A DNA stretch of 64,000 nucleotides, taken from contig JAZQWL010000010.1 of assembly GCA_045632305.1 (NCBI GenBank), forward strand, positions 3,399 through 67,398, written 5' to 3'. A model generated the notes under the pieces. That model was not told the DNA's origin. It did not search any database and saw nothing but the letters and a program-made list of their open reading frames with translations. Within the stretch, counting starts at the first letter, position 1. Every line of letters begins with the position of its first letter. The stretch comes from Eubacteriales bacterium (GTDB lineage: Bacteria; Bacillota; Clostridia; Oscillospirales; CAG-272). This document shows, piece by piece, positions 15,611 to 63,424 of the stretch. The position numbers and the translations under genes are program-made.

Positions 15611-15640
15611 AAAATCCCGATTGCAAGATCGGGATTTTTT
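15611..15640 (+). terminator. intrinsic terminator after ilvE
   Basis: ATCCCGAT.../...ATCGGGAT stem followed by TTTTTT. Confidence 0.7.
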
Positions 15641-15662
15641 GGAAAGAAGGTTGAGGTTTTCT

Positions 15663-16403
15663 GTGATACAGGATCTGCATTCACATACTTATTATTCGTT
15701 TTGCGGCGAGGATACTCCCGAGGCGGTGGTTGAAGCGGCGATAAATGGCGGCATAGAGGTGCTTGGAATAACCGACCACAATCATGGAATCGGAAACGCA
15801 ACAACACAGGTGTTTTTTCACGGCAACAAAATTGAAAAATACGATTATGAGCGCACGCTCAGACGTTATTTTGACCATATAAATCTCATTAAAGAAAAAT
15901 ATGACGGAAAAATACAAATTTTGCGCGGTATAGAGCTTTGCACAAAGAATTTGCAGAGGCATTTCCTCCCCGATAACGCGGACGTCTCGTTTTTTGATTA
16001 TTGTTTGATAGAAAATATTGACGAGGCGGACAGTGTTACGAATAACGATATTTTTTCTTATGCGGAACGGCTCGGAACTGTCTGCGGTGTCGCGCATACG
16101 GATATGTTTGCCTATATAAAATCGCGCGGCGAGGATGCGTATAAATATTTCAAGAGAATGGCGGATATGGGTATTTTCTGGGAAATGAACGTAAACCTCG
16201 ATACGATCCACGGCGGCAGGGAGCATAAATATATGCTTGACTTTTTCTCAAACGAAGAACAAAAGGCAATTGTTCGTGAATCGGGAGTTCGTCTTTCGGT
16301 TGGCTTTGACGGACACAGAGTTTACGATTATAAGCCCGATAGAATAGCGTATTATTGTAACAAAATAAGCGAGATGGGTATTAAGCTCGCGTTTGAAGAA
16401 TAA
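15663..16403 (+). CDS. PHP-domain phosphoesterase (histidinol-phosphatase-like family)
   Basis: N-terminal DLHSHTYYS and ITDHNHG PHP motifs. Start moved to GTG 15663 because the upstream part of the ORF overlaps the ilvE terminator. Confidence 0.65.
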   Translation: MIQDLHSHTYYSFCGEDTPEAVVEAAINGGIEVLGITDHNHGIGNATTQVFFHGNKIEKYDYERTLRRYFDHINLIKEKYDGKIQILRGIELCTKNLQRHFLPDNADVSFFDYCLIENIDEADSVTNNDIFSYAERLGTVCGVAHTDMFAYIKSRGEDAYKYFKRMADMGIFWEMNVNLDTIHGGREHKYMLDFFSNEEQKAIVRESGVRLSVGFDGHRVYDYKPDRIAYYCNKISEMGIKLAFEE

Positions 16404-16437
16404 AAAACGGTGTTGGAAATCCAACACCGTTTTTTTT
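16404..16437. terminator. intrinsic terminator hairpin (bidirectional shape)
   Basis: AACGGTGTTGG/CCAACACCGTT stem flanked by an A-run and a T-run. Confidence 0.7.
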
Positions 16438-16481
16438 GTAGATTTGTTCTGTGCCAAAGCAGTAAAAGACTGATTGGGTTT

Positions 16482-16661
16482 GGATGCAGAAGGCGTGATC
16501 GCGAGAACGTAGCCGTACAAGGGTACGGCAGAGACCGCGAGCCCGACTAAAACGCCACAAAAAAATGAGGAAAACCGCAGACTTGTCTGCGGTTTTCAAC
16601 TTTAAAAAGAAATATACTTTAAATTTTGATAAAACTGTGTAAATCTTTTTGTGTGGCGTTT
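16482..16661. ncRNA. unclassified structured intergenic element, copy 1 (homologous to 52153-52324)
   Basis: About 118 nt aligns to copy 2. It shares a nested hairpin, a long-range helix with compensatory changes, and a GC hairpin. Strand of expression unresolved. Confidence 0.5.
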
Positions 16662-16678
16662 GTTCTGCGCCAAAGCAA

Positions 16679-17182
16679 TCAGTCTTCAATTACTTCCATT
16701 TTGTCGATTACAACCGCACACTTCGGAACATCACTGAAGTAGGAATAGTTACCCGTCTTAACGTCCGCAATCGCGTCAACAACCTCAATACCTTCAATAA
16801 CCGCACCGAATGCCGCATACTGTGTGTCGAGGTGGGGAGCATCCTTGTGCATAATAAAGAACTGTGAGGACGCGGAGTTGGGATCCATTGTACGAGCCAT
16901 GGAGAGAACGCCGCGCTTGTGCTTGATGTCGTTCGCCATAAAGCCGTTTCTGATGAATTCGCCCTTGATCGACTTTGCTTCAACGTGGTCGAAGCTTTCG
17001 TCAAATCCACCGCCCTGAATCATAAAGCCCGCGATTACTCTGTGGAAGATAAGTCCCGAGTAGAAGTCGCTCTGTACAAGAGAAAGAAAGTTTTCAACCG
17101 TCTTGGGTGCCTTTTCGGGGTAGAGCTCAACTGTCATCTCACCGAAATCTCTCACTGTTATTTTTACCTTTGGATTGTTCAT
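16679..17182 (-). CDS. ppiB: peptidyl-prolyl cis-trans isomerase, cyclophilin type
   Basis: Cyclophilin motifs (FHRVIAGFMIQGGGF, LSMARTMDPNSASSQFFI). Start at the second ATG (17182), after AGGAAC. Confidence 0.85.
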   Translation of the reverse strand: MNNPKVKITVRDFGEMTVELYPEKAPKTVENFLSLVQSDFYSGLIFHRVIAGFMIQGGGFDESFDHVEAKSIKGEFIRNGFMANDIKHKRGVLSMARTMDPNSASSQFFIMHKDAPHLDTQYAAFGAVIEGIEVVDAIADVKTGNYSYFSDVPKCAVVIDKMEVIED

Positions 17183-51826: not shown

Positions 51827-51845
51827 TGTGTTATCCTCGCTTTTT

Positions 51846-51890
51846 TAAAAGTAAAACGGCACTCCACAGGGATTTTTTCTGTGGAGTGCC
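51846..51890 (-). terminator. leader terminator (attenuator) immediately upstream of aroF
   Basis: 12-bp stem GGCACTCCACAG/CTGTGGAGTGCC followed by GTTTTACTTTT. It ends about 20 nt before the aroF RBS. Confidence 0.7.
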
Positions 51891-51965
51891 TAATCTTGAG
51901 AATCTATGGCACAAAAGAATCTGAATTCTTTTTTCGCATCAAAAATCACCTTTACTTAATTGTTA

Positions 51966-52040
51966 TCAGCAATAAAAGTAAAAGTAATAATATACTGTTG
52001 CGAAAATAGTGGAAGCCATAACGTTTCTCGCTTTCTTCAT
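51966..52040 (-). CDS. candidate aromatic leader peptide MKKARNVMASTIFATVYYYFYFYC
   Basis: 24 codons plus tandem stops TGA TAA. Seven consecutive Tyr/Phe codons lie between the operon promoter and the leader terminator. The SD is weak, and ATG at codon 8 is an alternative start. Confidence 0.55.
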   Translation of the reverse strand: MKKARNVMASTIFATVYYYFYFYC

Positions 52041-52052
52041 TATATTACATAT

Positions 52053-52081
52053 AGTCTATCACTATTTTTTAGGTTTGTCAA
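52053..52081 (-). promoter_or_regulatory. sigma-A promoter of the aro operon leader
   Basis: Minus strand reads TTGACA-17 nt-TAGACT. Confidence 0.55.
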
Positions 52082-52109
52082 GTCCTTTTGATATTTTTCT
52101 GTCGATTTT

Positions 52110-52138
52110 TTAACGTTTTGTATTTAAATAAATATAAT
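52110..52138 (+). promoter_or_regulatory. candidate sigma-A promoter driving plus-sense transcription of repeat-element copy 2
   Basis: TTAACG-17 nt-TATAAT. The conserved block begins about 15 nt downstream of the -10. Confidence 0.45.
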
Positions 52139-52144
52139 GGCTGA

Positions 52145-52324
52145 AGGAATTTAGATGCAGAAGTCGTGATCGGGCAATCGTAGCCGTACTTGGTACGGCA
52201 GAGAGCCTGATCTCGGCTAATGTGCCACATAAAATGGAGAAACCCGACGGATGTCGGGTTTCAACAATAAATGTATTACCTTTGAATTTAACATTGACAT
52301 CGACTGCCTTTTTGAGTGGCACAT
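52145..52324 (+). ncRNA. unclassified structured intergenic element, copy 2 (homologous to 16482-16661)
   Basis: Same architecture as copy 1, with its own candidate promoter. A G-T wobble in helix P1 favours plus sense. The GC hairpin at 52241-52262 may act as a terminator shared with asnS. Confidence 0.5.
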
Positions 52325-52348
52325 GTTCTGCGCTAAATTCTTCTGCCA

Positions 52349-53743
<1,395 letters not shown>

Positions 53744-62907: not shown

Positions 62908-63372
62908 TCATTAAAGCAAAAACACCGCATAGGCATTCGCCTACGCGGTATTTTTGGTCGAAGTGACACGATTCGAACTGAGATTTGTCGCGTCGCTTTC
63001 GCGACATCAAATGCTCCAAATCAAGAGAATGCAGGCATTCTCTTTGCAACAAAATCCAAATGGCTACCGCCGCCATTTGAATTTTCTGCACGTTCTCGCA
63101 TGTGTCATTAAAGCAAAAATACCGCGCAGGCATTCGCCTACGCGGTATTTTTGGTCGAAGTGACACGACTCGAACTGAGATTTGTCGCGTCGCTTCCGCG
63201 ACATCAAATGCTCCAAATCAAGAGAATGCAGACATTCTCTTTGCAACAAAATCCAAATGGCTACCGCCGCCATTTGAATTTTCTGCACGTTCTCGCATGT
63301 GTCATTAAAGCAAAAATACCGCGCAGGCATTCGCCTACGCGGTATTTTTGGTCGAAGTGACACGACTCGAAC
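62908..63372 (-). repeat. 197-bp tandem repeat (2 full units + 71-bp partial unit merging into tRNA-Pro). Each unit = ~125-nt hairpin-rich segment + last 24 nt of tRNA-Pro + terminator hairpin
   Basis: Unit starts at 62908, 63105 and 63302. Units A and B show about 6 mismatches. tRNA 3' fragments lie at 62955-62978 and 63152-63175. Terminator copies lie at 62917-62954, 63114-63151 and 63311-63348. Confidence 0.85.
63311..63348 (-). terminator. intrinsic terminator of tRNA-Pro
   Basis: Minus sense reads ATACCGCGTAGGC-GAAT-GCCTGCGCGGTAT followed by TTTTTG. The mismatch position is a G-U wobble only in minus sense. Confidence 0.7.
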
Positions 63373-63424
63373 GTGCAGCATCTTGCTCCCAAAGCAAGCG
63401 CGCTACCAATTGCGCCACACCTCG
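63349..63424 (-). tRNA. tRNA-Pro (anticodon UGG)
   Basis: Hand-folded 76-nt cloverleaf. Acceptor CGAGGTG/CACTTCG, D stem GCGC/GCGC, anticodon stem CTTGC/GCAAG with loop TTTGGGA, T arm GCACG-TTCGAGT-CGTGT, encoded CCA. Confidence 0.85.

Follow-up and report, generated by a model that had tools for sequence, protein, structure and literature searches.

What are two look-alike intergenic stretches doing behind two housekeeping genes of a gut Clostridium? The DNA analysed here (hereafter the window) is a 64,000-nt stretch of an Eubacteriales bacterium (lineage Oscillospirales, CAG-272; NCBI GenBank assembly GCA_045632305.1, contig JAZQWL010000010.1, positions 3,399 to 67,398), and it carries one such stretch at ppiB (copy 1) and a second at asnS (copy 2). 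An earlier note on the same letters had proposed a two-copy structured element, either a small RNA (sRNA) gene or a gene-specific 3′-untranslated-region (3′-UTR) module. We find instead a new, widespread non-coding repeat with a strand-specific multi-helix fold, which is gained and lost at gene 3′ ends. It is probably a non-autonomous mobile repeat resembling REPIN, BOX and miniature inverted-repeat transposable elements (MITEs), one that would move by way of a folded single strand and be tolerated or co-opted as a terminator cassette.

Sensitive blastn aligned copy 1 with copy 2 at 67–69% identity over 211–253 nt (E = 3e-22 to 4e-23; alignment span 16465–16674 with 52136–52337); no other part of the 64 kb comes close, and nhmmer with a family profile returned exactly these two copies. 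The roughly 70% identity given in the earlier note therefore stands, whereas its length of about 118 nt has to be extended to about 210 nt (~16468–16684 versus 52139–52347), and its count of two becomes at least 70, spread over many species. The note also had the copies starting near a stop codon; in fact, the gene (ppiB, asnS) is met by the right (3′) end of each copy and not by its start. According to the table of open reading frames (ORFs), the ppiB stop codon (16679–16681) and last codon (16682–16684), both on the minus strand, lie inside copy 1, and copy 2 ends on the right 1 nt before the asnS stop codon (52349–52351, minus strand).

A scan for one hairpin of the element (P2, below) in one genome per species gave 17 real loci in Eubacteriales, Oscillospiraceae, ‘Ruminococcus’ and Clostridia metagenome-assembled genomes (MAGs) from human, horse, deer and other guts; a metagenome scan for the two boxes of the element at the right spacing gave 69 loci, about 55 of which are true members with the same interior. 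As the metagenome scan left the interior unconstrained, conservation of the interior is not an artefact of the search pattern. The family has at least 70 members, drawn from gut and rumen MAGs of Clostridia and from metagenomes; it is dispersed in Clostridia of the Oscillospiraceae/Ruminococcaceae type, has a unit of ~215–235 nt and includes tandem arrays and 1.1-mers; two or three copies, in tandem or in opposite orientations within 8 kb, occur in loci L003, L006, L047, L053 and L073 (opposite orientations in L006 and L053). Diverged relatives with altered boxes (GAGCAGAAA; GGTCTGYGC) were seen at L016:6574–6800, L003:1412–1916 (tandem units with a 237-nt period) and L010:3223–3440, and the family is therefore broader than exact-pattern scans could reveal.

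The family matches nothing named, as the earlier note had supposed. An Rfam 15 scan of the window at the gathering threshold returned a single tRNA gene (63352–63424, minus strand, 63.5 bits); a permissive scan of copy 1 gave sub-threshold noise, with no more than 21 bits for the best hits (cut-off 49) and 15.9 bits for IS605-orfB-II (cut-off 88); and Rfam scans of 28 family loci matched only RNase P RNA and tRNAs. The phage, plasmid and viral collections searched held no match to the element, and a limited literature search (Clostridia MITEs and terminators, RNase P P12 insertions, Firmicutes REPIN/RAYT, Oscillospiraceae MITEs) found no description. The repeat family is apparently undescribed.

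The full fold is a three-way junction formed by a closing helix (P0), an arm (P1+P2) and a long-range helix (P3). P0 is 24–27 bp long, and its inner 8 bp constitute a conserved box with an invariant U.G (T.G) pair and a bulged A; outward of the boxes GATGCAGAAG and TGTTCTGCGC, ~15 further nt on each side are specific to the copy yet complementary within it. P3 contains a GC hairpin (P4) and an AT-rich segment (P5), and the terminator-like hairpins within it, one or two in number, are bordered by A- and T-tracts; a large subfamily has a long hairpin for P5, preceded by an A-tract and followed by a T-tract. The parts in the window are as follows.

16403..16438, no strand assigned: native bidirectional terminator of the host, outside the element, orthologous to the terminator directly after ppiB in the empty site
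16443..16462, plus strand: ‘solo’ right-end box TTTGTTCTGTGCCAAAGCAG, an extra partial unit between the native terminator and copy 1
16468..16684, plus strand (folded strand): copy 1, full unit (blastn, nhmmer; a row in the 70-copy alignment A2)
16468..16491, plus strand: copy 1 P0 5′ strand, i.e. the copy-specific arm GACTGATTGGGTTTG and the conserved box GATGCAGAA (16483–16492)
16490..16548, plus strand: copy 1 arm P1 (~16490–16505 with 16535–16548), enclosing a conserved 3×3 internal loop and P2
16512..16529, plus strand: copy 1 P2 hairpin, GCCGTAC-AAGG-GTACGGC
16550..16558, plus strand: copy 1 P3 5′ strand AAACGCCAC, pairing with 16653–16661
16570..16597, minus strand: copy 1 P4 GC hairpin with the minus-strand tail CTCATTTTTT, a terminator-like site for ppiB
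16598..16652, plus strand: copy 1 AT-rich variable segment (P5 region), with a minus-strand −35/−10-like site at 16643..16616
16653..16661, plus strand: copy 1 P3 3′ strand GTGGCGTTT
16662..16684, plus strand: copy 1 P0 3′ strand, i.e. the box GTTCTGCGC (16662–16670) and the copy-specific arm
52139..52347, plus strand (folded strand): copy 2, full unit (blastn, nhmmer)
52139..52162, plus strand: copy 2 P0 5′ strand, i.e. the arm GGCTGAAGGAATTTA and the box GATGCAGAA
52183..52199, plus strand: copy 2 P2 hairpin, GCCGTAC-TTG-GTACGGC, with P1 on either side (~52161–52175 and 52205–52218)
52220..52228, plus strand: copy 2 P3 5′ strand ATGTGCCAC, pairing with 52316–52324
52239..52262, minus strand: copy 2 P4 hairpin, terminator-like for asnS, with the minus-strand tail TCCATTTTAT
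52316..52347, plus strand: copy 2 P3 3′ strand GTGGCACAT, box GTTCTGCGC (52325–52333) and copy-specific P0 arm

Both the invariant bulged A and the U partner in the invariant U.G pair are located in the P0 5′ strand of copy 1. The solo box is a direct repeat of 16659–16678 (84% identity over 32 nt), and its layout—a 1.1-mer with a 20-nt extra box—is seen again in L014, L025 and L046, but not in the empty site of L089.

Covariation in an alignment of 70 distinct family copies (A2) supports this fold: RNAalifold recovers P0, P1, P2 and P3 with double changes in 27 of 40 pairs; standard pairs occupy 95.4% of cells versus 83.5% after shuffling; none of 500 shuffles matched the observed value on any of five measures; and moving the partners by 1–3 columns lowers pairing to 36–46%. 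In P1, 11 of 14 pairs have changed on both sides and 96% of cells are paired. The long-range helix P3 (AAACGCCAC/GTGGCGTTT in copy 1) shows double changes in 5 of 6 pairs across the family; at pair 94/257, for example, 39 copies have GC, 23 have AU and 5 have UA. The 7-bp hairpin P2, described earlier as invariant, is real but varies (GCCGTAC/GTACGGC, GGCGTAC/GTACGCC and GCTGTAC/GTACAGC; at pair 51/67, 28 copies have CG and 27 have GC), and only its top 4 bp (GTAC) are invariant. Similarly, the proposed pairing of GCAGAA with TTCTGC is present in 70/70 copies, but represents only the inner end of the 24–27 bp P0 (A2 pairs 12–27/264–278). The outer 15–17 bp of P0 differ between copies and are complementary inside each of them: GACTGATTGGGTTTG with CAAAGCAATCAGTC in copy 1 (P0 duplex 16468–16491/16662–16684, −30.4 kcal/mol) and GGCTGAAGGAATTTA with TAAATTCTTCTGCC in copy 2 (52139–52162/52325–52347, −27.5 kcal/mol).

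Folding energies agree, with z-scores of −8.7 to −9.7 across both strands of both copies. The minimum free energy of copy 1 is −88.8 kcal/mol on the plus strand (z = −8.7) versus −83.0 on the minus strand, and that of copy 2 is −95.5 kcal/mol (z = −9.6) versus −82.5. The folding z-scores and the covariation test together exclude chance. The search for further homologues, at least 70 of which keep the proposed helices, and the covariation among the 70 aligned copies thus bear out the view of the earlier note that the structure is selected and not a decaying duplicate. The ‘Shine-Dalgarno-like’ GAGG/GGAG of that note turned out to be only a purine-rich linker that is missing from one large subfamily.

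The pairs also reveal which strand is folded. Counting all pairs, 217 are G.U on the plus strand and 31 are A.C (A.C on the plus strand being would-be G.U on the opposite strand), and 65 G.U versus 30 A.C are still found when three near-fixed columns are left out; the U.G pair beside the bulged A is present in 70/70 copies; and the RNAalifold energy is −51.6 kcal/mol in the plus orientation versus −39.9 kcal/mol in the reverse. The plus strand, on which the architecture had originally been read, is therefore the folded one, and whatever recognises the structure does so in a single strand. The two copies in the window are both on the G-rich strand. When pooled, the skew at third codon positions (GC3 skew) has a replication component of ~ −0.01, i.e. 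orientation is not tied to replication; given this pooled value near zero and opposite orientations side by side, the idea that replication sets the orientation is unsupported.

Orthologous sites provide direct evidence of gain and loss. In L089, whose PpiB is 92% identical, the site is empty: ppiB ends with ...ATT GAA TAA TAG, directly followed by the orthologue of the 16403–16438 terminator. The window gene ends with ...ATT GAA GAC TGA, in which GACTGA is the first element sequence met; the element thus supplies ppiB with its last codon and its stop. PpiB has 166 amino acids without the element (...MEIIE*) and 167 with it (...MEVIED*; window and L093). L093, a closer relative (PpiB 94% identical), has only the first 37 nt of the element, including the stop codon, and then the same terminator, so that the ppiB site is represented in an empty (L089), a full (window) and a 37-nt remnant (L093) state. 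The asnS site is likewise empty in L095–L097 (AsnS 89–90% identity), full in the window, and reduced to a 24-nt remnant (arm and box, terminator after) in L001 and L094 (AsnS 99–100%). The remnant arm GCTGATTTATTTAG (L001:4399–4437, L094:2696–2730) is unlike the window arm GGCAGAAGAATTTAG at the same position, and this difference could reflect two insertions at one site or gene conversion.

In one metagenome, six copies whose flanks are all unrelated share the very same arms (GGGGCTGCTTCATTTAG...); therefore, the arms are not host hairpins and the closing helix belongs to the element. These six copies, and the native ppiB terminator that is still intact beside copy 1, rule out that the element is a guide RNA with a variable arm copied from the host flank, or that it inserted into a hairpin already present in the host. 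An invertible promoter (inverton) is ruled out by the position of copy 1 between two gene 3′ ends and by arms that vary between loci.

Where the element resides is equally distinctive. Among the 51 copies with enough flank for a census (genes of at least 120 amino acids, stop codon within ~35 nt), 40 (about 78%) have a stop codon that close: in 17 it lies on the right only, the gene being antisense to the folded strand; 17 have one on either side and stand between convergent genes; and in 6 it lies on the left only. In the convergent cases, about a third of copies, the stops often lie 0–10 nt from each element end. Stop codons are often inside the element arm; in L038 (3736–6684), a 982-amino-acid ORF runs 46 nt (15 codons) into the element before it stops, and the element has replaced the C-terminus of that gene. 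Other terminator-like hairpins within 70 nt are few (left, 9/63 copies; right, 3/63). Insertion targeted directly downstream of a host terminator fits copy 1, L014 and the asnS remnants, but only 9/63 copies overall, and was rejected as a general rule.

The element itself most likely serves as a transcription terminator at gene ends, as its predicted hairpins suggest. A GC hairpin with a T-run downstream of a gene, i.e. an intrinsic terminator, is found in P4 and, in one subfamily, in P5. By strict criteria, hairpin plus T-run occurs in 55/69 copies on the strand that corresponds to ppiB and asnS transcription versus 12/69 on the plus strand. In keeping with the earlier note, the scan for terminators scored P4 as one for both minus-strand genes, ppiB and asnS (at copy 1 on that strand alone). 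In 36 aligned copies, the left flank is A-rich and the right flank T-rich, thereby lengthening the helix and producing T-runs in either direction.

Residence is not confined to mRNA ends. In L007 (2005–2580, minus strand) and L008 (4631–5207, plus strand), an element of ~210 nt sits in the P12 tip of a complete class-A RNase P RNA (RNaseP_bact_a, 209–212 bits, model positions 1–367). The two loci belong to two different MAG species, and the insert is about as conserved as the ribozyme.

Once resident, copies change in a manner that respects the fold. Between orthologous copies of sister species, paired columns change ~3× less than unpaired ones and compensatory changes are present: L005 and L009 differ at 4/80 paired versus 22/143 unpaired positions, including a CG to TA double change. 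The element is at least as conserved as the neighbouring genes; in L015/L019 it is 93–100% identical, and the intergenic DNA to its left 53%. Such conservation in place points either to selection acting on the copies in residence or to their homogenisation by others.

Our results suggest how these properties could fit together. The element lands at or within a few bases of a stop codon, with copy 1 supplying the stop itself. We propose that an enzyme acting in trans recognises the strand-specific fold in a single-stranded intermediate, DNA or RNA, by the same logic as REPINs with RAYT, IS200/IS605 ends and attC sites. The internal hairpin or hairpins with T-runs, together with the closing helix and its T-rich flank, would then halt incoming transcription, so that insertions in the terminator zone would be harmless or useful and hence kept. 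Trans mobilisation via a folded single strand would leave the arms free to change while pairing stays, would place G.U pairs on one strand whatever the direction of the host gene, and would make no target duplication.

Several observations weigh against this proposal. In the loci examined, neither a transposase, recombinase or reverse transcriptase linked to the element nor a longer ‘autonomous’ version was seen, and there is no target-site duplication and no clear target motif. Orientation lacks the link to replication expected for an IS200/IS605-like route through single-stranded DNA. An RNA intermediate, in turn, is disfavoured by the internal terminator-like hairpins, which should shorten full-length transcripts, and by the lack of a conserved promoter; invariant U.G pairs are nevertheless more typical of RNA than of DNA hairpins. 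That orthologous copies are so highly conserved could reflect gene conversion or a host role that goes beyond tolerance; 17/51 copies fill the entire convergent spacer, for which simple insertion needs later loss of the old terminator; and terminator activity is predicted only.

The searches behind these negatives were as follows. Clustering of 340 flanking ORFs gave no recurrent mobility gene, the recurrent neighbours being radical-SAM and ABC proteins. No parent insertion sequence (IS) with the same ends (GGGGCTG...GATGCAGAAG / GTTCTGCGC...CAGCCCC) was found in ~0.5 Mb of loci from incomplete genomes. Neither in the window nor in any of the loci did tblastn for Y1/RAYT yield a hit below E = 0.02, although this was a weak test with approximate queries on incomplete genomes. 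No direct repeats stand at the ends of the 36 aligned copies, and none emerged from the comparison of filled and empty ppiB sites. Inspection by eye did not reveal a hammerhead, K-turn, group II domain V or attC R-box. Frames within the element are not conserved because loop lengths differ by 1–2 nt, which rules out an ORF for a small protein or toxin.

Other explanations account for part of these data. The element may be a classical cut-and-paste MITE: a DDE transposase with its gene elsewhere would bind the closing helix as a pair of terminal inverted repeats in double-stranded DNA, and the inner fold would be a by-product. The short, non-coding unit, the copy number of at least 70, the 24–27 bp terminal inverted repeats and the presence/absence polymorphism would all suit a MITE; however, target-site duplications are absent, the interior helices P1, P2 and P3 covary, an IS with the same ends was seen in no locus, and double-stranded recognition does not predict the asymmetry between G.U and A.C. 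Moreover, the outer 15–17 bp vary between subfamilies and stay complementary, whereas a protein that reads sequence should hold them constant. We consider a DDE-mobilised MITE unlikely. We are similarly doubtful that the covariation of P0 and P3 reflects an RNA reading DNA (or a second RNA) and not an intramolecular helix. Here, a plus-strand RNA extending from the left arm to the internal terminator would carry two antisense segments flanking P1–P2, one formed by the left arm and its box, the other by the 5′ strand of P3, and both would pair with one continuous 35–40 nt stretch at the right end of the element; in a variant, the RNA would be contiguous only in an excised circle or tandem array and would be transcribed from the AT-rich segment. 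Such an RNA would resemble the bridge RNA of IS110 in donor-end recognition, or a guide of the omega-RNA type.

A family of trans-acting sRNA genes, in which a plus-sense transcript runs from the left arm to the GC hairpin and shares a bidirectional terminator with the neighbouring gene, would explain why the plus strand is the folded one, and P4 (P5 in one subfamily), lying between A- and T-tracts, could end such a transcript. A sigma-70-like site, TTAACG-17-TATAAT (10/12; 52110–52138, plus strand), does end 1 nt before the left end of copy 2, but it has no counterpart at copy 1 or most other copies: a suitably placed site upstream of the left end exists in only 1/59 copies, and left flanks are unrelated host DNA. 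Plus-strand −35/−10-like sites inside the AT-rich segment occur in 25/59 copies, at positions that depend on the subfamily, and may be noise from AT-richness. Given that P0 and P3 pair beyond the internal terminator-like hairpin, an sRNA ending there could not form two of the four covarying helices. Copies also lie inside RNase P RNA and overlap stop codons, and sister strains have copies deleted to remnants. We therefore hold a discrete sRNA, for which no conserved promoter was found in the copies, to be quite improbable, and the original choice between an sRNA gene and a gene-specific 3′-UTR module is too narrow for a dispersed repeat that stands beside unrelated genes, in tandem arrays and inside RNase P RNA, with gain, loss and remnant states at both window loci. 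Just as improbable, in our estimate, is a cis element evolved by the host (a 3′-UTR stabiliser, an RNase III site or an insulating terminator) and spread mainly by recombination under host selection. Stop-codon adjacency, the scarcity of other terminators nearby, the conservation of orthologous copies (equal to or above that of neighbouring genes, with compensatory changes in place) and the ~25 bp closing helix, in principle a natural RNase III substrate, favour a host element. Against these stand near-fixed G.U pairs on the plus strand regardless of gene direction, with the host mRNA carrying the opposite strand at both window copies; near-identical copies at unrelated loci of one metagenome; a copy inserted in RNase P RNA; and the loss of copies without replacement in sister strains. 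Finally, chance resemblance or a decaying segmental duplication, to which the sight of only two copies in the window might have pointed, is refuted by E ~1e-22, at least 70 homologues, covariation and the folding z-scores, and we give it practically no credence.

The surroundings of the two copies show further changes. The window is a core chromosomal region of a Clostridium of the Oscillospiraceae/Ruminococcaceae type, the type under which the sources list the AsnS and PpiB relatives, and all ~50 genes scanned in it are housekeeping genes. A PHP-domain ORF (15621–16403, plus strand) lies between an Aminotran_4 gene and ppiB; it is missing from L089, where these two genes are convergent with a 52-nt spacer. 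In L090 (2002–3500; PpiB 89% identical), TnpV, DUF6809 and sigma-70-like genes follow ppiB, representing a different mobile insertion at the same gene end. In strains of the same species (L001:4396–5628, L094:2696–3900), asnS and the DAHP-synthase gene are separated by an HTH_3 gene and by TM2/DUF2752 membrane genes; ~700 bp of this interval are missing at 51827–52138 of the window, with a breakpoint near the repeated promoter-like AAAGGACTTGACAAA.

Among known repeats, the REP/REPIN sequences (BIMEs; mobilised by RAYT, a Y1 HUH enzyme; mainly Proteobacteria) provide the nearest parallels: short, non-coding, extragenic hairpin repeats at gene 3′ ends and in convergent spacers, with tandem clusters, compensatory hairpin changes, no target duplication and a presumed single-stranded substrate acted on in trans. 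The present element differs in being ~220 nt long, in having a three-way junction and a conserved side arm where REPINs have a simple REP doublet, and in its Clostridia hosts; neither its strand-specific G.U pattern nor its stop-codon targeting is a REPIN hallmark. BOX (pneumococcus), ERIC/IRU (enterobacteria), Correia (Neisseria) and bcr1 (Bacillus cereus group) are likewise modular, non-coding folding repeats of 100–250 nt that are co-transcribed, often in 3′ regions, can act on termination or mRNA stability, and have end modules that pair (boxA/boxC). Their sequences, however, are unrelated, and Correia and bcr1 make target duplications (TA, TTTAT), whereas the element shows none; to our knowledge, fixed-strand multi-helix covariation and residence on stop codons are not features of these families.

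The ends of IS200/IS605 and PATE elements share with our repeat the lack of terminal duplication, strand-specific folding and abundance in Clostridia, and IS200 also has an internal hairpin that blocks impinging transcription. Nevertheless, IS200/IS605 ends are two separate subterminal hairpins and not one closing helix, their orientation follows the replication fork as that of the element does not, no TnpA or TnpB lies near the element, and the IS605-orfB RNAs of Rfam do not match it (E = 2.9). Integron attC sites, too, are imperfect single-strand hairpins with extrahelical base(s), located right after a stop codon and recognised by structure over sequence. In contrast to attC, the boxes GATGCAGAAG and GTTCTGCGC lie at the inner and not the outer end of the helix and do not fit RYYYAAC/GTTRRRY (compared by eye with the established consensus); in place of cassettes, the element has core housekeeping genes and an RNA gene beside it, and no integrase is nearby. 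The self-paired inserts at the dispensable P12 tip in L007 and L008 recall rRNA intervening sequences and cyanobacterial STRR; both are helix-tip insertions closed by a long stem, as in rRNA-type intervening sequences, although the element resides mostly at mRNA 3′ ends. Insertions of STRR in P12 of cyanobacterial RNase P RNA have reportedly been described.

The element is unusual among REPIN/BOX/MITE-like repeats in its three-way junction and conserved arm, its strict strand specificity, its stop-codon placement, its predicted terminator cassette and its insertion in RNase P RNA. There is a real chance that the missing partner will be interesting: if our reading is correct, the strand-specific fold with the invariant U.G pair and the bulged A by the junction would point to a structure-reading enzyme. 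HEARO and the IS605-orfB RNAs were orphan structured repeats that later proved to be guide RNAs of IscB and TnpB, and this precedent makes the partner worth finding. If an RNA reads the element ends, the repeat would form the RNA part of a new system for RNA-guided mobility; at a minimum, Firmicutes would gain their first REPIN-like system of single-strand transposition, one aimed at the boundary between stop codon and terminator.

In conclusion, if the reading proposed here is true, abundant and almost uncultured gut bacteria carry a previously unlisted structured mobile element that rewrites gene 3′ ends: it can donate a stop codon, replace a terminator, split convergent units and occupy RNase P RNA. 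For annotation, this would mean that element 3′ ends and remnants are misread as ordinary intergenic DNA; for evolution, the family would show plainly how a selfish repeat can be co-opted as a terminator, and sites in the empty, full and remnant state are there to be studied.

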